A DNA stretch of 64,000 bases from Escherichia coli. GTDB taxonomy: Bacteria > Pseudomonadota > Gammaproteobacteria > Enterobacterales > Enterobacteriaceae. The DNA lies in NCBI RefSeq assembly GCF_001677475.2, contig NZ_CP015229.1; one strand, given 5' to 3'. This document shows, in pieces, positions 3,735-60,052 of the stretch. The first letter of the stretch is position 1; each line of letters starts with the position of its first letter. The position numbers and the translations under genes were made by a program. The notes under the pieces are model-generated. The model was not told the DNA's origin and ran no database searches. It saw only the letters and a list, made by a program, of their open reading frames with translations.

Positions 3735-3909
3735 GTCAACTGGCTTTGTCCTGCTGGTTGGCACCTGCGGGAATGATGCCTGCGATGCCATTCCGGTAAC
3801 GGAAAAAATCTGGCCCACAGAGCAGGCATGTATGCAGGTGATGGAGCGCATACAAAAACGTTATCCCAGTGAAATCTTTTATTGCGAAGAGGTATTACGA
3901 AATGAATAA
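3727..3909 (+). CDS. small hypothetical protein
   Basis: 60 aa from ATG 3727, overlapping previous stop. Confidence 0.4.
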   Translation: MIKSTGFVLLVGTCGNDACDAIPVTEKIWPTEQACMQVMERIQKRYPSEIFYCEEVLRNE

Positions 3910-4228
3910 ACCAGAGAATAAAGAAATGAAATTCACACCAGTTGATATTGATGGCGTCATGGCTAATTTAAAGATGCTGGAACGTATGCACGATATCGTT
4001 AAATATGGTATTGAGCATGACCTCACCGCCAGAGAAGTCCGGAGCATTATTAACCGTGAAATGAACCAGGTGGAAGCTGCCGTGGCGCTACAAAATGAAG
4101 CAGCCCGCGAGGAATACATTCGTCGCAGGCTGGGACTATCAAATAAAGATATTCTTACGGATGCTCAGATGGCTGAGGCTTTTGATATTCATCAGAATCT
4201 TGGTCTAACAAACGGATGGTATCAGTGA
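3902..4228 (+). CDS. hypothetical early-region protein
   Basis: 108 aa from ATG 3902 with GAGG RBS. Confidence 0.5.
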   Translation: MNKPENKEMKFTPVDIDGVMANLKMLERMHDIVKYGIEHDLTAREVRSIINREMNQVEAAVALQNEAAREEYIRRRLGLSNKDILTDAQMAEAFDIHQNLGLTNGWYQ

Positions 4229-51692: not shown

Positions 51693-52590
51693 GCACTGGA
51701 AAAACATTACTATTTATAAACTTTCTCGTGAGGCGGATCTGACCGACTTAGAAGATAAAAAGAAAATGATCCTTTTCACGCCATGCGGTAGTCAGGATAT
51801 GGCCAAGTTCGGTTTTGTATCGCCATTTGGTGATAATTCCGAAGTTATCGCTATGCATGGAAATGGTTTTATCCTTGTTGAAGCAAAGCGCGAAACAAAA
51901 ATTCTTCCCCCGCCGGTTATCCAGCGAGCTATTCAAGAAAAAATTGAAAAACTTGAGCAAGAACAAGCGCGTAAACTGAAGAAAACAGAGAAGGATTCCC
52001 TGAAAGACGAAGTTCTGCATTCTCTTCTGCCACGGGCTTTTTCAAAGTTTTCTGTTATCCAGGCGATCTACGATGGTTCAACTAAACGTATCTATATCAA
52101 TGCCAGCGCGCGGCAGGCAGAGGATATGCTCGCACTTATGCGTAAGTCTCTGGGTTCTCTTCCTGTTGTTCCCCTAAGTGTTGAAAATCCCATTGAATTA
52201 ACGCTGACCGACTGGGTACGTGATGGTAGTGCTCCACAGGGATTTCAAATGGGGGATGCGGCAGAACTTAAGGCAGTGCTTGAGGATGGCGGTATTGCCC
52301 GAGTGAAAAAGCAGGATTTGGGAAGCGATGAAATTTCCACACACCTGGAAGCTGGCAAGCTCGTCACTAAGTTGGCACTCGACTGGCAGAACCGCATTAA
52401 ATTTACACTGGACCATAACTTCAGCCTTACCAGCGTCAAATTTGCGGATGAATTGCTTGAGCAGAACTCTGATATTGATAGTGAAGATGTTGCGCAGCGA
52501 CTGGACGCAGATTTCTTCCTGTTGACCAGTGAAATTTCGTGCCTGGTTGATGCTCTGGTAAATGCCCTTGGCGGAGAGGCTAAGCAGTGA
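51685..52590 (+). CDS. RdgC-like recombination-associated protein (hrdC position)
   Basis: 301 aa from ATG 51685; N-terminus [15 protein letters not shown] like RdgC MLWFKNLMVYRL. Confidence 0.7.
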
Positions 52591-55500
52591 AAGAGCTGTG
52601 CTATGGATCTGTTTGCAGTGGAATTGAAGCCGCGAGTATTGCCTGGGAACCGTTGGGTATGCGTCCGGCGTGGTTTGCTGAAATCGAGCCTTTTCCATCT
52701 GCCGTTCTTGCGCTCCGCTGGCCCCATGTCGCCAACCTTGGCGACATGACAAAACTTGCCAAAAAAGTCTTGGCTGGGGAAATCGAATCCCCTGACGTGC
52801 TCGTCGGGGGAACACCATGTTTTACCGCGGGGCATATGGTTCTTTGTAAAAATGGTTATAAACCAATAGAAGATGTTTGCCCTGGCGATTACGTAGTCAG
52901 TCATCTCGGGCGGTTACAACAAGTAAAAAGAGTTGGTTCAAAAATAGCTAATACGGGGTTACTTAATGCCGTTGGGCAGCCTTTAGGTATAAGAACAACC
53001 AATGACCATCCCTTCCTGGCTGTTCGGTGGAAAGCCCAAAACACCCGGAAAAATGGCACATATTTTAAGAGAGAGTTGTTGTCTGAACCGGAATGGCGAG
53101 CAGCATGTGATATGCCGGGATATCAATGGTGCGCTCTAACTAATTTCAATATTGCATCTCCAGATATTTGTTCTCGGTTCTTGTCTGAAGAACAGGCTAT
53201 GTATCTTGCGGGCGCTTATGTTGGCGATGGATATATTAGGAGATGGAGAGGTAAATCTAAGAAGGCGGTTGTTTTTGGCATAAATTGCCAGAAATTGAGA
53301 AAGTTTCATTGCCGCATACCAGAAAACATATTTTCCGTGGCAAGCGAAATCCGAGGGAGCATCAAAGTAACCTTGAATGATACGTGTTATGCCAATTGGC
53401 TTAATGAACATTTTGGCGAGTTAAGCCATGCTAAGCGTATCCCTGCATGGGTGATGTCGCATCCATTGCGTCATGTGTTTTTACAAGGCTATCTTGATAC
53501 TGATGGGACACCAAGTGGTAAAGCGGGATTTAGAATTAATAGTGTTAGTCCTGCGCTTGCTTGGGGCGTTGCGGGGTTGTCACAGACTTGTGGTTATGTT
53601 TCTTCGGTCAGCTTTATTGAAGTTGAGCCCAAAAAAGTGATCGAGGATCGCGTGGTAAATCAACGGAATTATTATCAGGTAACAATCTGCCCGCAGAAAT
53701 TGTCACGTAAATCAAGATTGGCTCATGGAATGCTTTTACGAACAGTCAAAGAGTTTAAATCGGTAGGCCTAGATACTGTATACAACATAGAAGTCGAAGG
53801 TGATCATTCCTATATCCTCAATGGTGCGGTGGTCCATAACTGTCAGGCATTCAGTATCGCGGGCTTACGTGGTGGGCTTGATGATGAACGCGGCGCGCTA
53901 ACTTTGAAGTATGTGGAGCTTGCAAATGCAATTGACGACAAACGGTCTGAGTCCTTCCTCAAACCGACAGTTATCGTCTGGGAAAATGTCCCAGGAGTCC
54001 TGTCATCGGCAGATAACGCCTTCGGATGTTTCCTTGCCGGATTGGCTGGAGAAGATGCGCCATTTGAACCAGGTGATCGACCTGAATCAGGAAAAAGTAA
54101 CGCGTTCTGGCGGTGGGATGGCAAAACCGGTTGCCATGCTCCAAAGTGGCCGCAGTGTGGTTGTATTTATGGACCGCAGCGAAAGGTGGCCTGGAGAATC
54201 CTTGATGCCCAATACTTCGGAGTGGCACAACGACGCCGACGCGTGTTTGTTGTCGCAAGTGCTCGAACAGACCTCGATCCCGCAACGGTACTTTTTGAGT
54301 TCGAAGGCGTGCGCCGGAATATTGCGCCGAGCCGAAAAAAGAAGGAAATCGCTTCCGCCATTATTGCAAATGGCGCTGCAATCAGTGGCGAAAGCCTAAA
54401 TCCATGCCTACACGCTGACATGCCACCCGGTATGAAATCGACGAAAGCCGTAAACGCTTTCAGGATGGCGGCATTTGGGGAATATATTGACGATGAAACC
54501 GCATCGACAGTAAAGGCAAGAGATTTTAAAGATGCCACTGACCTTGCCGTTTTTAGCAGCACAGGAGCAGGTTTTTGGTCAGAAGGGCATGGTACATTGC
54601 GGGCACGTGAGCAAGAAAGCCATGAGCATCTTGTTACATTGGCTTTTCCTGAGCGTATGAGCGGTACACAACATGCTGCAACTAAGAATACTTCACCATC
54701 TCTAATGGCTAAAAATCCAACAGCTGTTTGCTATGAAGTAAGAAACGCAGAAGTAGCTGTCCGCCGTCTTACCCCTGTCGAATGTGAAAGGCTGCAAGGT
54801 TTTCCTGATGGGCATACGTTGATCCCGACGGAAAAGCGTAAAAAAGTTAATTCAGATGAACTGGCATATCTTCGCAATCACTATCCAGATTTAAGCGAAG
54901 AAGAGGCCGCGATGCTTGCAGCTGACGGACCGCGTTACAAAGCGATCGGCAATAGTATGGCAATACCAGTAATGCGCTGGATTGGCGATCGGATTACTAA
55001 GGCCGTATGTCGGCAGAAAGAAGGAAGTGAAACAAAAGAGCGAAAAGTTAAACCAGCGGCAGAATTCGAACGGTCCATATTCAAATGGGCTGGTGGAAAA
55101 TTTGGTGTTCTGGAACAAATCTTTCGCTATTTGCCAGAAGGGAAGCGCCTGATTGAACCTTTCGTTGGTGGCGGAGCTGTCTTCATGAATGCCGGATACC
55201 AGGAAAATCTGCTAAATGATGTGAATGCTGACCTGATTAACTTTTACAAGACTCTGCAACGCGAGGCGCATTCACTTATCACTCTGGCACATCGTTTCTT
55301 CCAGGACTACAACACACAGGAAGGATACCTGGCAGTACGGAATGCGTTTAACAAACAAGTCTATGATGATTTACATCGCGCAGCGGCGTTTTTGTTCCTG
55401 AACCGACATTGTTTTAACGGATTGACGCGTTACAACCAGGCCGGTGAGTTCAATGTCGGTTACGGGAAGTATAAAACTCCGTATTTCCCATTACAGGAGA

Positions 55501-55844
55501 TGGAAGCCTTCCTCGGTGCGGAAGGGCGGTCTGAGTTTGTATGCGGTGATTTTGCAGCGGTGATTGAAGCTGCCGGAGAAGGAGATGTCATCTTTTGCGA
55601 TCCGCCGTATGAACCGCTTCCAAATACAGAGGGATTCACGAACTATTCCGGTCATGACTTTAAGTTTGAAGAGCAAAAACGCCTGGTGTCTCTGTTGACG
55701 GATGCTCATCGTCGAGGTGCAAAGGTTCTCATTACTAACAGTGGCGCGCCAAACATCAGAGAGCTTTATCATGACAGTGGCTTCAGAGTGGAACCTCTTT
55801 TTGCCAGACGTTCTGTGTCTTGTAAGGGGACACTCGAGGTGTAG
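52587..55844 (+). CDS. bifunctional DNA methyltransferase: C5-cytosine domain (interrupted by intein) fused to Dam-like N6-adenine domain
   Basis: 1085 aa; C5 motifs GGTP/CQAFS, ENV, QRRRR, RLQGFP, GNS; Dam motifs [10 protein letters not shown] and DPPY. Confidence 0.8.
52818..53840 (+). other. intein with LAGLIDADG homing-endonuclease domain inside the methyltransferase
   Basis: 341 aa from CFTAGHMV to GAVVHN followed by +1 Cys; TTNDH block; [11 protein letters not shown] and [11 protein letters not shown]. Confidence 0.7.
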
Positions 55845-55863
55845 CTCATGACGTTTTGGGTAT

Positions 55864-55880
55864 ATTGCTCTAATAAATTT
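55864..55880. promoter_or_regulatory. C1 operator 17-mer, perfect consensus, upstream of tRNA-tci-ban operon
   Basis: ATTGCTCTAATAAATTT. Confidence 0.55.
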
Positions 55881-56053
55881 ATTAGTGTAATATCGCCTCA
55901 ATGAATCGTGATTTATAGAGCGATTTAGCTGTTAGCCGCGACAGGCGCGGCGGTAAGCATGGCTGGGCCTAGTCCTCCCAGACAAACCACCGAGTTGCCA
56001 GGTTGACCATGCGCCTAAGTGGCAACGCCGAAGTGCGTTACGAGCTTCCAGTT

Positions 56054-56080
56054 TGCCCATCTTCGGGTGGGCGTTTTTTT
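56054..56080 (+). terminator. terminator-like hairpin in operon leader
   Basis: GCCCATC-TTCG-GGTGGGC then T7. Confidence 0.4.
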
Positions 56081-56545
56081 CAGGGTTTTCGTCATAGTTA
56101 GCGACTTTGCGGCGGTTTAGAAACTGACCATTAAAGTAAATGCAAACGATGATCTGATGATGGTAGCGGCCTAAGAAGCCAGATGCCACGGGGTATGAGT
56201 CGTCCCCCGTCAAAAAATCGACCGCAGAGTGTCCCCGTCTGTGTATTAGGGAACGGGGAGGCACAACAGGTAAGGGCGCTGGTGTGATTAACCAGATGAA
56301 CGAGAAGGGGCCATCTGTTGGTCAGCGTCCTTTCCTGTTGCGTTTTCTTTTCAGCGTAACAGCGGTGCTTAACAGCACTTTGGGTACAGTTCCACGAATT
56401 TACGGGTATATCCCGTCATGCTGAAGGCGCTAATCACGCTGGAAGCCAGGGTTGTGCATCCCCTGTTACCGAATTGCAGCCAGGGCGCGGTGCGCCGAAA
56501 AGCATACGGAGGTGGAAGCCCTCGCCGGAGACGTACCCGGCAAGT

Positions 56546-56621
56546 GATGGTGTAGCTCAGCGGTTAGAGCGGTTGACTGTTAATCAACGGGTCGATGGTT
56601 CAAATCCATCCACCATCGCCA
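56546..56621 (+). tRNA. tRNA-Asn (anticodon GTT)
   Basis: Cloverleaf folded by hand; anticodon loop CTGTTAA; T-loop GGTTCAAATCC; encoded CCA. Confidence 0.85.
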
Positions 56622-56623
56622 AT

Positions 56624-56699
56624 GCCGGTTTAGCTCAGTTGGTAGAGCGCCTGCCTTGTAAGCAGGATGTCAGCGGTTCGAGTCCGTTAATCGGCACCA
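56624..56699 (+). tRNA. tRNA-Thr (anticodon TGT)
   Basis: Cloverleaf folded by hand; anticodon loop CTTGTAA; T-loop GGTTCGAGTCC; encoded CCA. Confidence 0.85.
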
Positions 56700-57626
56700 G
56701 CACAACAGGTAAGGGTATTTTGCGACGTCGGAGATCGCCGAGCTTGGCAGAGGGTTCGAATCCCTACGAAGTACCCTTACCGTTGTGATGAATGCGCAGG
56801 CTGATGCGCGAAAGACATTGCAGCTATTGCGGAAAAGAGCTGTTCGGCGGGGCAATTAAACGCCCGTGAGAGTCTGAAATAACCGCAAGCCGGAGATCAG
56901 CACCGGTCATCACAACACAACAGGTAAGGGCATTCTCCCTTATGGGGCTTGGCTTAAATGCATCGAGTGCTCTTACCGTTGTGATGAAGTGCAGCTCTTT
57001 GAAGCAACCAGAAGATAAGCATCTGGCTTCACAACATAAACCGCAGGAACGACCAATAAACGGTAGTCCGTATGGAGAACACCCCGTTGAGGAAGAGGCC
57101 TGGCCGGAACCGTAACCGGCACTACAACGTTGAGAACACTGGCGTAACGGGGTCATATCCCAATCTACGAATAAATGTTGCGTTGCAGCGTGACAACCAG
57201 TGTTCTCAACATTGTGGTGAATGCACAGGCTGATGTGCCGCAACTACAGTAGTGCGCGCTTTGCGGGGCTTGCTACAACCCTGTGTCGGAGTTCAGCACC
57301 GACCATCACAGTTTGATTCTCTGGCATGAGCATAACGCTGAAATAAGTCCAGTCTGGTGCGGCCCGATCACCCGCCGTTAGCTCCACGAAACGGAGCACG
57401 TAACAGGTAAGAGCATTCTCCTGTAACGGGTTCATATCCCAATCTACAGGTCCACCAGGAATGCTCTTTCCGTTGCGGTGAATGCGGCTAAGCGCACGCG
57501 GGGAAATGGTTATATCTGTCCATTATTTCTCCTTATTTCCCCGTCCACGGTGGATAACCAGCCAAAGGACACCGGGAGGCACCCGGCACCGCAACCTTAT
57601 TTCCCAACCAGTAATGAGGTTAATAA

Positions 57627-58052
57627 ATGCTCGGTATTCTCAAAAAGAAATTCCGCAAAGCGGCTGGCGGAGTCAAGAAGATGGAAAACCGTGATGCGGT
57701 GGAAGCGACTGTCTGGGGCGCATATTCCATTGCATACTCTGACGGCACCTGCGATGCGAAAGAAATTGCAGTATTGGAAAAAACCATTGCAGCACTTCCT
57801 GCCTTTGCGCCGTTCTCCGGTGAAATTGCCCAGATGAGCGCCAATATTCGCGCTCAATATGAAGCCTCGCCGCGCCGAGCGAATGCCCAGGCTTTACGTG
57901 AACTGGCTGACGTGTCTGGAACTAATGATGCGGTAGATGTTCTGTGCCTATGCATTGATATTGCTGACCAGGATGGCATTGGGGCAGAAGAGCAGGAGCA
58001 ATTGAAGAAAATTGCCCAGGCTCTTCAATTGCCACTGGAACAGTATATCTGA
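57627..58052 (+). CDS. TerB-like domain protein (tciA position)
   Basis: 141 aa; GAGG RBS; helical, acidic. Confidence 0.65.
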   Translation: MLGILKKKFRKAAGGVKKMENRDAVEATVWGAYSIAYSDGTCDAKEIAVLEKTIAALPAFAPFSGEIAQMSANIRAQYEASPRRANAQALRELADVSGTNDAVDVLCLCIDIADQDGIGAEEQEQLKKIAQALQLPLEQYI

Positions 58053-58216
58053 TGGTTATAAAAGCACGTCTAATTCTGGCTTTGGTTTTTCTCGTGCTAT
58101 CTGTGCTGGTGGATTTCACCAGCACAATCCTGTCGGTTTTATCCGACGGGGCGTTGGTAGCAGTAGCTGTAACATTGGTATGGCCGATATTTAAACCAGC
58201 CTCGAAGGATCAGTGA
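58052..58216 (+). CDS. small hydrophobic membrane peptide
   Basis: 54 aa; ATG overlaps previous stop; two hydrophobic helices. Confidence 0.45.
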   Translation: MVIKARLILALVFLVLSVLVDFTSTILSVLSDGALVAVAVTLVWPIFKPASKDQ

Positions 58217-58323
58217 TGAGCTTCTGGGATTTTGCAGATAAGTATCCAATTGTTCTCATTATCATTGTTGCCATAGTTGTAGGCGGTATTGTTAGCGCCA
58301 TTGAAGCACTTAGGAAACAGTAA
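58216..58323 (+). CDS. small hydrophobic membrane peptide
   Basis: 35 aa; ATG overlaps previous stop (TGATG); one TM. Confidence 0.4.
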   Translation: MSFWDFADKYPIVLIIIVAIVVGGIVSAIEALRKQ

Positions 58324-58326
58324 TCC

Positions 58327-58402
58327 GGCCCTTTAGCTCAGTGGTTAGAGCTGGCGACTCATAATCGCACGGTCACCGGTTCAAGTCCGGTAGGGGCCAC
58401 CA
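58327..58402 (+). tRNA. tRNA with CAT anticodon (Met or lysidine-dependent Ile)
   Basis: Cloverleaf folded by hand; anticodon loop CTCATAA; T-loop GGTTCAAGTCC; encoded CCA. Confidence 0.8.
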
Positions 58403-58687
58403 TATTTGGTTGTAACACGGCGTCTGGCACATGCGTCGTTAGCGGTCTGGTAACGTTAAAGGGGTTACCTTTTCCCCTAGCTCAGGCAACAAACCAGGTA
58501 GCCGAAATGTGCAAGTCACCGTTGGAGGGATAGCGGATACAGGGACTCACCATCCTGGCGATTCGGTGTGACAGCCGGGAAGAGTCCGGCGCATTAATCC
58601 TGATTTTCTGGTGATGACTCATATCGTTAGGAGTGATTTGAGTATGCCGATTATATCTGACATTCAGCACGCCTGGGTGGAGTGCTA

Positions 58688-60052
58688 ATGTCTGCATCCC
58701 CTCTTGAATCCATGCCAAATTCCCTTAGTGCAGAACAAGCTGTACTTGGTGGCTTAATGCTTGATAACTGCCGCTGGGATGAAGTTGCAGATCGTATAGT
58801 TGCTGATGATTTTTATACCAGTGCTCATCGTGAAATTTTCAGTGAGATGGAGAGGTTATTAAGTCATGGCAAACCGATTGATTTGATAACACTTGCTGAA
58901 GCACTTGAACAGAACGGTAAATTAGAACGCGCCGGTGGTTTTGCGTACCTTGCGGAGATGTCAAAGAACACGCCCAGCGCGGCAAATATTTGTGCTTATG
59001 CGGATATCGTTCGTGAACGCGCGGTTGTTCGTGAAATGATTTCCGTCGCAAATGAAATAGCTGAAGCTGGATATGCGCAGGATGGCAGGGGCAGCAATGA
59101 ATTGCTGGATATGGCCGAGCGCCGCGTTTTTGAAATAGCTGAAAAACGACAAAAGAGCGGTAGTGGTCCAAAAGATATCGCCAGCATTCTCGATGCAACG
59201 GTATCTCGCATAGAAGAGTTGTTTCAGCGACCGCATGATGGTGTAACGGGGCTTGATACCGGATTTACCGATCTCAATAAGAAGACGGCAGGACTTCAGG
59301 CGTCCGATCTCATTATTGTCGCCGCCCGCCCATCGATGGGGAAGACTACGTTTGCGATGAATCTCGTCGAAAATGCCGCAGTCCGTAACGATAAGCCCGT
59401 ATTGGTTTTTAGCCTTGAGATGCCGAGCCACCAGCTGATGATGCGCTCACTGGCTTCTCTTGCACGCGTTGATCAGACTCGTATTCGAACAGGGCAACTT
59501 AACGACGAGGATTGGGCGCGGGTTTCTGGCGCAATGGGGATTCTGTTGGACAAGCAGAATATTTTTATTGATGACTCAAGCGCCCTGACACCTACAGAGC
59601 TTCGTTCCCGCGCTCGTCGTGTTTATAAAGAAAATGGTGGTTTGAGCATGATTATGATCGACTACCTGCAACTTATGCGCGTCCCCGAGCTGCAAGATAA
59701 CCGAACGCTGGAAATTGCCGAGATTTCTCGCTCACTGAAGGCTTTGGCGAAGGAATTACAAGTACCGGTGGTGGCATTGTCACAACTTAATCGATCGCTT
59801 GAACAGCGTGCGGACAAACGACCGGTAAATTCAGATTTACGTGAATCAGGAGCAATTGAGCAGGACGCAGACCTGATCATGTTTCTGTATCGTGACGAAG
59901 TTTATCACCCGGATAGCGAAATGAAGGGCATTGCCGAGGTAATTATCGGTAAGCAACGAAATGGCCCAATTGGCACGGTGAGATTGGCTTTTAACGGCCA
60001 ATACTCACGGTTTGATAACTATGCCGGTGCTGACTGGCAAGAGGATTATTAA
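58688..60052 (+). CDS. ban: DnaB-like replicative helicase Ban
   Basis: 455 aa from ATG 58688; Walker A GKT, DnaB-family C-terminal motifs. Confidence 0.85.
   Translation: MSASPLESMPNSLSAEQAVLGGLMLDNCRWDEVADRIVADDFYTSAHREIFSEMERLLSHGKPIDLITLAEALEQNGKLERAGGFAYLAEMSKNTPSAANICAYADIVRERAVVREMISVANEIAEAGYAQDGRGSNELLDMAERRVFEIAEKRQKSGSGPKDIASILDATVSRIEELFQRPHDGVTGLDTGFTDLNKKTAGLQASDLIIVAARPSMGKTTFAMNLVENAAVRNDKPVLVFSLEMPSHQLMMRSLASLARVDQTRIRTGQLNDEDWARVSGAMGILLDKQNIFIDDSSALTPTELRSRARRVYKENGGLSMIMIDYLQLMRVPELQDNRTLEIAEISRSLKALAKELQVPVVALSQLNRSLEQRADKRPVNSDLRESGAIEQDADLIMFLYRDEVYHPDSEMKGIAEVIIGKQRNGPIGTVRLAFNGQYSRFDNYAGADWQEDY

Follow-up and report, generated by a model that had tools for sequence, protein, structure and literature searches.

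The tciABC genes of a P1-type phage-plasmid

Between positions 57,627 and 58,323 of a 64,000-nucleotide stretch of Escherichia coli DNA (contig NZ_CP015229.1; hereafter the window), three short open reading frames (ORFs) follow one another on the same strand. By comparison of the ORF list with the P1 record, they correspond to tciA, tciB and tciC of phage P1 (Table 1). The region 56400–58800 shares 98% DNA identity with phages JL22 and P1, whose records both annotate the three genes here and, judged by its sequence, the window is a P1-type phage-plasmid carrying tciA-tciB-tciC. The genes themselves are already known, having been annotated in P1 since 2004 (AF234172 / NC_005856; Lobocka et al. 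2004). They occupy the same place in the ban operon as in P1, with matching neighbours on either side (tRNAs, plp, upl and ban); the window differs in its SJ46-type TciC allele and in an insertion of about 173 bp in plp. The TciA protein is identical to that of P1, while TciB differs at 2 of 54 residues. TciC has 74% identity to its P1 counterpart, with 9 of 35 residues differing, and is 100% identical to the TciC of Salmonella phage SJ46.

Both junctions, tciA/tciB and tciB/tciC, read TGATG, so that stop and start codons overlap by one base. The ATG of tciA is preceded by GAGG 7 nt upstream and that of tciC by AAGGA 6 nt upstream. The ATG of tciB lacks a good Shine-Dalgarno sequence, which fits coupled re-initiation. 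We count tciC as 35 residues from the ATG at 58216; the mechanical ORF list begins at a GTG at 58213 and gives 36 residues. An earlier, sequence-only reading of this DNA had described a TerB-like protein of 141 residues coupled to hydrophobic peptides of 54 and 35 residues, and the ORF positions and TGATG overlaps agree with it. It had also placed the trio between tRNA-Thr and the CAU tRNA inside the ban operon. The tRNA calls bear out the first part, with the minus-strand genes plp and upl, which it omitted, lying in the same interval; the second part is correct because the C1 operator lies upstream of the trio and ban downstream.

The three genes have figured in several studies of P1. A genome-wide CRISPR interference (CRISPRi) screen found tciA, tciB and tciC each to be non-essential (PMC10695390). 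In a survey of P1-like phage-plasmids, tciABC was among eight highly variable regions and was missing from almost half of the subgroup 1 elements (PMC9603915). Two TciA peptides were detected by mass spectrometry in purified P1 virion/lysate preparations (PMC9024508), and TciA is therefore produced in lytic growth. The P1 literature found, comprising the CRISPRi screen, the phage-plasmid survey and the virion proteome, holds no functional test of the tci genes beyond essentiality, as the sequence-only reading had anticipated in calling their phenotypes loosely defined.

TciA, TciB and their pairing in other phages

TciA scored 28.4 bits with the Pfam TerB family (PF05099; COG3793), slightly over the threshold of 24.4 (E 2e-6), and matched phrog_632 at E 7e-62. 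A single-sequence search of PDB sequences returned only insignificant EF-hand matches. By a family profile of 99 relatives, gathered from 1.8 billion representative proteins, Klebsiella pneumoniae TerB (2JXU) was matched over its full length, at positions 9–143, with E 1.6e-26. These comparisons point to TciA as a genuine, full-length TerB homologue. Its AlphaFold2 model, with a predicted local distance difference test (pLDDT) score of 89.5, comprises six helices, in agreement with the all-helical TerB fold. A duplicated acidic motif, (A/S)-D-G-x5-E, occurs at D39-G40-E46 and D116-G117-E122 and is invariant or nearly so in the alignments; these motifs form a putative metal or small-ligand site, as has been proposed for TerB proteins. 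The first 19 residues have an isoelectric point (pI) of 11.4 and a conserved M-F-G-x-F-K-K-K pattern and are of low confidence in the model, whereas the body of the protein is acidic, with a pI of 4.2.

TciB matched DUF3927 (PF13064) at 101.3 bits against a cut-off of 25, with residues 2–54 aligned to profile positions 1–53 of 53, and phrog_1470 (the 'TciB-like' PHROG 1470) at E 2.5e-22. Among P1-type haplotypes, 12 of its 16 variable sites fall at third codon positions; between P1, P7 and D6, the ratio of non-synonymous to synonymous substitution rates (dN/dS) is 0.25–0.36, with dS of up to 1.1. On this pattern of substitution, TciB is a real coding gene. The protein has two hydrophobic segments, and residues R6, D21-F22-T23, S28, D32-G33, L35 and P45 are conserved. 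Lysine and arginine are enriched at both ends (means of 1.9 and 1.7) and the centre is acidic. The predicted topology is a hairpin with both termini inside, which would bring the conserved aspartates near the periplasmic turn.

The most regular feature of these genes is their adjacency. In the set of loci encoding a TciA relative that was fetched before more distant phages were inspected, a TciB-like ORF directly follows the TciA-relative gene in 98 of 98 cases. Its start could be placed in 94 loci; relative to the end of the TerB stop codon it lies at −4 (GTGA) in 60, at −1 (TGATG or TAATG) in 31, at 0 in two and at −8 in one. The pairing is kept in metagenomic relatives at 30–39% identity, and the small ORF has often been missed by gene callers. 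A partner so constant, and so coupled to TerB, has the pattern of a complex subunit and not that of an independently regulated toxin. From this constancy we infer physical contact between TciA and TciB in a two-subunit membrane complex. In three lambdoid prophages from IMG/VR (L048, L049 and L056) tciB is truncated or frameshifted, with the upstream TerB gene still intact, which indicates that the partner gene decays occasionally in prophages.

The pair is found in phages of very different lifestyles. In lambdoid prophages it sits between the Q antiterminator and holin genes, mostly just downstream of tRNA arrays. It also occurs on contigs of ~105 kb from E. coli and metagenomes (L007–L009 among them), which, from their size range, are probably SSU5/pHCM2-type phage-plasmids. 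In L007–L009 a gene of the Tad2-like, anti-Thoeris sponge family (3908–4219) precedes the pair by ~800 bp, and genes for Dam methylase and RNase T-like proteins are close by; such surroundings suggest an accessory or anti-defence island. Strictly lytic phages carry the pair as well, among them Pollock and FSL SP-058 of the N4-like Schitoviridae, and the authors of the Pollock genome remarked on TciA in a lytic phage as unexplained.

TciA relatives were found in 128 phage records, with hosts in Vibrio, Escherichia, Erwinia, Klebsiella, Pseudomonas and Salmonella, and eight of the more distant phages were inspected individually. In Pantoea phage LIET2 and in Pseudomonas phage ZY21, TerB is followed by a DUF3927-like ORF. 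In the jumbo Erwinia phage ChrisDB (L105), a hydrophobic ORF of 59 residues follows TerB; annotated 'TciB-like', it retains only the W-P-L-I-K end of the motif, and the pair is flanked by tRNA-Trp/Cys and tRNA-Tyr/Gln. A jumbo-phage survey by Iyer et al. listed the Erwinia TerB as 'standalone' and suggested that it helps the phage to compete with superinfecting phages (PMC7824862). In Pseudomonas phages AF and Holyagarpour, a different protein with a single transmembrane segment lies downstream of TerB. The N4-like Vibrio phage BUCT194 (L107, 1–1877) encodes, in a row, TerB, TerC/Alx, a TciA-like TerB and a soluble protein of 83 residues, and thus carries both TerB and TerC in one phage.

Several of these pairs share more than their order with tciAB. 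Pollock gp27-28, FSL SP-058, ChrisDB gp6-7, LIET2 gp75-74 and phage 434, with its TciB, have the same design of two overlapping or abutting genes, and the DUF3927 core V-D-F-T ... S-x-L-x-D-G ... W-P recurs in the Pollock, FSL SP-058 and LIET2 copies. They differ in having no tciC equivalent, and their TerB proteins are 29–45% identical to TciA or to the P7 TerB; some stand in strictly lytic genomes. The constant TerB–DUF3927 pairing across unrelated phage types, the confinement of TciC to one lineage and the alternative SPFH occupant described below may not have been spelled out before.

The occurrence of the pair in strictly lytic phages, together with the TerB gene and small hydrophobic ORF of jumbo Erwinia phages, argues against a purely lysogenic-conversion or addiction role. 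The gene names themselves suggest conversion, with the lysogen gaining tellurite or colicin resistance or phage inhibition. These names and the TerB homology date to the 2004 annotation of P1; some prophages of the Rahnella type carry the pair on the repressor side of their immunity region, oriented like cI, and prophage genome papers count TerB as 'phage defence' cargo (PMC7371120). We nonetheless consider this reading improbable. In P1 the cassette stands behind the C1-repressed ban promoter with no promoter of its own annotated, and the pair is common in strictly lytic phages. Moreover, the resistance conferred by ter operons does not come from TerB alone (PMC12054061), and the local operon has no TerC or TerD gene.

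TciC stands apart from this pair. It matched phrog_23152 at E 2e-26 and has one hydrophobic segment. Among the loci encoding TciA relatives it is found only in the P1/P7/D6 lineage, and by tblastn in phages we recovered only the identical SJ46 allele. In D6 an unannotated, divergent tciC homologue directly follows tciB: MDFWTYIDKNPGWSLLFLLVIVYGVEQVAKNLRRRK. This ORF (L018, 3216–3326) encodes 36 residues, overlaps the tciB stop codon, and shares with TciC an N-terminal F-W-x-x-x-D-K-x-P, one transmembrane segment and a basic tail. The gene is intact in 26 of 26 P1-type loci, where two main alleles occur. Variable sites in tciC fall about equally on the three codon positions (5:6:7) and dN/dS between the alleles is 0.64, so that the case for TciC as a gene is weak. 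A plausible reading is that of a small membrane peptide with a single pass, in which composition alone is constrained.

A possible Ter module at the inner membrane

We tentatively propose that tciABC is a minimal, membrane-anchored phage Ter module that shields the inner membrane of the infected cell, a reading that to our minds leans slightly to the doubtful side. TciA would be the cytoplasmic TerB-fold protein, with its acidic DG-x5-E motifs as a putative metal or ligand site. TciB, made by coupled translation, would hold TciA at the inner membrane as a hairpin of ~50 residues whose ends are both cytoplasmic and whose two conserved aspartates lie by the periplasmic turn, and phages of the P1 lineage would add TciC as a third, single-pass peptide. 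The cassette would share one transcript with the tRNAs and ban, started at the C1-repressed ban promoter; under such a promoter the tci proteins would be made after induction or infection, and not in the quiescent prophage. By analogy with TerB–TerC, the complex would alter the inner membrane so as to give resistance to membrane-directed insults during phage growth. Candidate insults are the entry of superinfecting-phage DNA, pore-forming colicins and membrane-collapsing suicide responses.

The analogy draws on the ter operons, such as terZABCDE(F) of the IncHI2 plasmid R478. TciA is a full-length homologue, of the same fold class, of the TerB proteins of these operons (K. pneumoniae TerB, 2JXU). 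As in tci, a gene of the terB type is followed directly by a membrane-protein gene, and published work treats the TerC–TerB complex as the core of Ter systems (PMC12054061). Unlike TerC, a multi-pass protein, the membrane partner in tci is the ~50-residue DUF3927 hairpin, which has no similarity to it, and the local operon (tRNAs, plp, upl, ban and dbn) has no TerC, TerD, TerZ, TerA or TerE gene. The ter operons confer resistance to tellurite, phages and colicins, whereas the P1 tci annotation was made 'by homology' and no phenotype is reported in the papers found. In favour of the module, some TerB relatives that lack DUF3927 stand beside another membrane protein, namely the single-pass protein of AF and Holyagarpour and the TerC/Alx of BUCT194, and the tci slot itself holds an SPFH/Band_7 membrane protein in other P1-like genomes.

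Small, early-expressed membrane proteins that exclude superinfecting phages are known in T4 Imm, P22 SieA and HK97 gp15. Like the tci peptides, these are tiny, located at the inner membrane, dispensable for plaque formation and encoded in variable accessory positions, and the Phi and PacB phenotypes of Ter systems point to the same compartment as the target. They have no sequence or family relation to tci and act without a cytoplasmic partner of the TerB type. A role in superinfection competition has been proposed for phage Ter genes (PMC7824862). By extension from the Ter system, the tci genes may have an exclusion or anti-phage role.

Several observations weigh against a protective membrane module. 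No experiment ties the tci genes to any phenotype, and CRISPRi knock-down of each left P1 plaque formation unchanged (PMC10695390). An AlphaFold2 model of a TciA–TciB fusion, with a 20-residue linker and a paired alignment of 21 sequences, showed no confident interface, with a predicted template modelling (pTM) score of 0.55. Its TciB part was predicted as one long helix at pLDDT 48–64, leaving the topology unresolved, and the N-terminus of TciA was still of low confidence. P7 and D6 pair a TerB only ~31% identical to TciA with a TciB 62–83% identical to that of the window, a combination that is hard to explain if the interface is highly specific, except where the conserved N-terminal motif itself forms it. 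In phages PMBT3 and Vibrio D517, the TerB relatives are not followed by any small membrane ORF; phage TerB genes of the TciA family thus usually, but not always, adjoin a membrane-protein gene. TciA, TciB, TciC, Plp and Upl had no match in PADLOC-DB v2 at E ≤ 1. In ter operons, TerB alone gives no resistance and TerC–TerD has been reported as the minimal unit (PMC12054061). Finally, P1 already has a superimmunity locus, sim.

The same genes could instead serve counter-defence, with TciA as a ligand or metal sponge, or TciA–TciB as a membrane guard, countering either an immune signal of the host or an abortive-infection effector that depolarises the membrane, and so letting lytic growth run to completion. 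In strictly lytic phages, the current infection needs protecting more than a lysogen does, and on the ~105-kb contigs the Tad2-like gene lies ~800 bp from the pair, with Dam and RNase T-like genes nearby. TerB and TerD are reported to bind ligands and to sense a nucleoside-like signal (PMC7824862), and the slot is highly variable among P1-like elements, as is typical of counter-defence loci (PMC9603915). We regard the idea as unlikely, however, since the tci proteins have no homology to known anti-defence proteins, no host system is known to be antagonised by a TerB protein, and a soluble sponge needs no obligatory membrane partner. The CRISPRi screen showed no plating defect, on a laboratory host that may itself lack the relevant defence.

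The conserved acidic dyads of TciA and the two conserved in-membrane aspartates of TciB also bring metal homeostasis into consideration. TerB and the acidic hairpin would buffer or move Zn, Mn or Ca at the inner membrane to the benefit of phage replication, as TerC/Alx proteins do. The consecutive TerB, TerC/Alx and TciA-like TerB genes of the Vibrio N4-like phage would suit such a role, as would the location of the pair next to genes for nucleotide metabolism and replication, both in N4-like phages and in the ban operon; Zn and Mn induce the ter operon, and terC contributes to Zn/Mn resistance (PMC12054061). K. pneumoniae TerC, however, did not act as a Zn/Mn efflux protein in the same work, there is no evidence of ion transport by a 50-residue hairpin, and no metal-regulatory element is evident upstream of the cassette. 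We hold a metal role to be distinctly unlikely.

The sequence-only reading had called small membrane peptides typical toxins or exclusion factors. In that form the idea is not supported: TciB is a constant partner of TerB, the pair is also present in strictly lytic phages, no PADLOC model was matched, and TciC is restricted to one lineage and lacks a codon-position signature of selection. A related possibility is that TciB, TciC or both damage the membrane as a toxin, holin or antiholin-like protein, setting the time of lysis, with TciA as regulator or antidote. TciB and TciC are both strongly hydrophobic, the holin–endolysin cassette of lambdoid prophages comes directly after the pair, and tciB is truncated or frameshifted in some of these (L048, L056). 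That position is, though, the general moron slot between Q and S, and the lambdoid loci concerned already have two genes of holin families; in P1, the ~105-kb contigs, N4-like and jumbo phages the pair lies away from lysis genes. The local operon has no endolysin, and neither a holin nor a type I toxin family was matched in Pfam, PHROG or NCBIfam. Coupling behind TciA restricts TciB to TciA-like amounts, and the placement of TciB after a 141-residue protein in 98 of 98 loci differs from the architecture of an independent, antisense-controlled toxin gene. With knock-down also lacking a plaque phenotype (PMC10695390), we consider this reading very improbable. Like lysogenic conversion, it fits poorly with C1 repression, occurrence in lytic phages and constant coupling to TciA.

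Returning to the membrane-anchored Ter module, its most far-reaching form is that TerB and DUF3927 together make up a two-subunit phage device that is widespread but has so far been overlooked, present in temperate and strictly lytic phages alike and swapped as a cassette, often beside tRNAs. It would protect the inner membrane by excluding rival phages or colicins, or by blocking membrane-collapsing abortive infection. We consider this extension unlikely as it stands. If true, a TerB protein would for the first time have a defined molecular role, and the 'standalone TerB' of lytic and jumbo phages would be accounted for. The question is reduced to a small unit, a 141-residue TerB and a ~50-residue hairpin with two conserved aspartates, available in genetically tractable phages, namely P1, lambdoid phages and the N4-like Pollock. 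Should this unit prove to have a phenotype in exclusion, anti-suicide or metal handling, the result would also shed light on the Ter systems of pathogenic enterobacteria, which have long lacked an explanation, and would account for one of the eight variable regions of resistance-spreading P1-like phage-plasmids. The comparative points made here are modest refinements that make the question testable, not a discovery.

The variable slot and the surrounding ban operon

The cassette occupies a slot whose conserved flanks, along with the other features of the operon, are given in Table 1. Searches of NCBIfam with TciA, TciB, TciC, Plp and Upl gave no match.

Table 1. Features of the tciABC cassette and the surrounding ban operon in the window
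Feature	Position	Strand	Description
C1 operator Oban, bivalent (formerly Op72)	55864–55891	+	Overlaps the ban promoters; starts the transcription unit containing tciABC
dicF-like leader	55989–56090	+	Coordinates carried over from the P1 'dicF-like region'
tRNA-Asn (GUU)	56546–56621	+	ARAGORN; Rfam tRNA 74.5 bits
tRNA-Thr (UGU)	56624–56699	+	ARAGORN; Rfam tRNA 72.9 bits; left conserved flank of the variable slot
plp	56824–57243	−	Putative lipoprotein; ORF; annotated in P1, JL22 and RCS47; antisense to the ban-operon transcript
upl	57244–57435	−	Unknown function; ORF; phrog_14500, E 8e-49
tciA	57627–58052	+	Probable cytoplasmic TerB-family protein of 141 residues; basic N-terminal 19 residues, acidic six-helix body, two DG-x5-E motifs
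tciB	58052–58216	+	DUF3927 membrane protein of 54 residues; predicted N-in/C-in hairpin
tciC	58216–58323	+	Predicted single-pass membrane peptide of 35 residues; SJ46-type allele; phrog_23152
CAU tRNA (trnI, ileX-like in the P1 annotation)	58327–58402	+	ARAGORN Met(CAU); right conserved flank of the slot
ban	58688–60052	+	DnaB-type replicative helicase; ORF; P1 and JL22 annotation; downstream in the same operon

In two other P1-like genomes, RCS47 (L103, 1946–2773) and MH422554 (L104, 1750–2577), a single membrane protein of 275 residues with an SPFH/Band_7 domain replaces tciABC between upl and the CAU tRNA. It is annotated variously as 'serine protease' or 'SPFH domain protein' and had no PADLOC match. 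Exchange has also taken place within the cassette. DNA similarity between the window and P7 or D6 ends near 57501 and resumes at 58082, ~ten codons into tciB; this break shows allele exchange by recombination inside the cassette. Upstream of the TerB gene, DNA from five genomic contexts gave no alignment and no conserved promoter or leader, and the mobile unit therefore starts at about the TerB ribosome-binding site.

A tRNA gene lies within 1.5 kb of the TerB-like gene in 65 of 110 loci, in at least five arrangements; the loci are not phylogenetically independent, and we attach no statistic to this count. In lambdoid prophages, Met(CAU)-Arg-Arg tRNA arrays stand 170 nt upstream of the pair, which thus has the position of the stx genes in Stx phages. 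The CAU tRNA of the window is tRNA-Ile2 in the P1 annotation, being 89% identical to E. coli ileX, and is 86% identical to the CAU tRNA of the lambdoid arrays upstream of TerB pairs. D6 has an unannotated CAU tRNA downstream, ~287 nt past the end of its tciA-like TerB gene. On the simplest reading, the tRNA genes mark shared accessory hot spots and serve as conserved flanks for cassette exchange.

The C1 operator reads ATTGCTCTAATAAATTT plus an inverted partner; in an alignment of 99.6% identity, its position is that of Obanab/P1ban/P2ban of AF234172. The P1 record annotates no tciA promoter, and in the P7 record the operator also controls the tRNAs. A simple sigma-70 scan of 55700–58800 found no promoter; it missed the known ban promoters too, and is therefore silent on an internal tciA promoter. 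The promoters P1upl/P2upl predicted in the P1 annotation overlap the start of tciA. The dicF-like leader ends in a terminator-like hairpin (56054–56073) followed by a T run, and had no DicF match in Rfam at E ≤ 0.1.

In the intergenic region between upl and tciA, 57474–57593 on the plus strand gave a sub-threshold match to Rfam STnc100 (39 bits against a gathering threshold of 47, E 2.5e-6), covering positions 31–147 of the 206 in the model. In one lambdoid locus (L004), the interval from Q to the TerB pair holds a full STnc100 copy (110 bits). The match in the window may mark a functional leader RNA or a relic of late-region DNA from a lambdoid phage.

Within the 3′ part of plp, an insertion of ~173 bp at 56793–56965 makes the gene longer than in P1. 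It is bordered by a direct repeat of ~23 bp, and ~137 bp of it is 98% identical to lambdoid and Stx phage sequences. Of 5426 complete E. coli genomes, about 1000 contain the segment, chiefly in the chromosome, and the insertion may be a small mobile or repeat element.

Upstream of the operator, the bifunctional methyltransferase Dmt (52587–55844) has 1085 residues against 754 in P1. It contains an intein at ~52815–53810 with Hint and LAGLIDADG homing-endonuclease domains, placed in catalytic motif IV of the C5-methylase half (GGTP/CFTAGH...VVHN/CQAFS, with slashes at the junctions). The insert is also present in OP279344, RCS47 and vB_EcoM-Ro157c2YLVW, where it carries no intein annotation.

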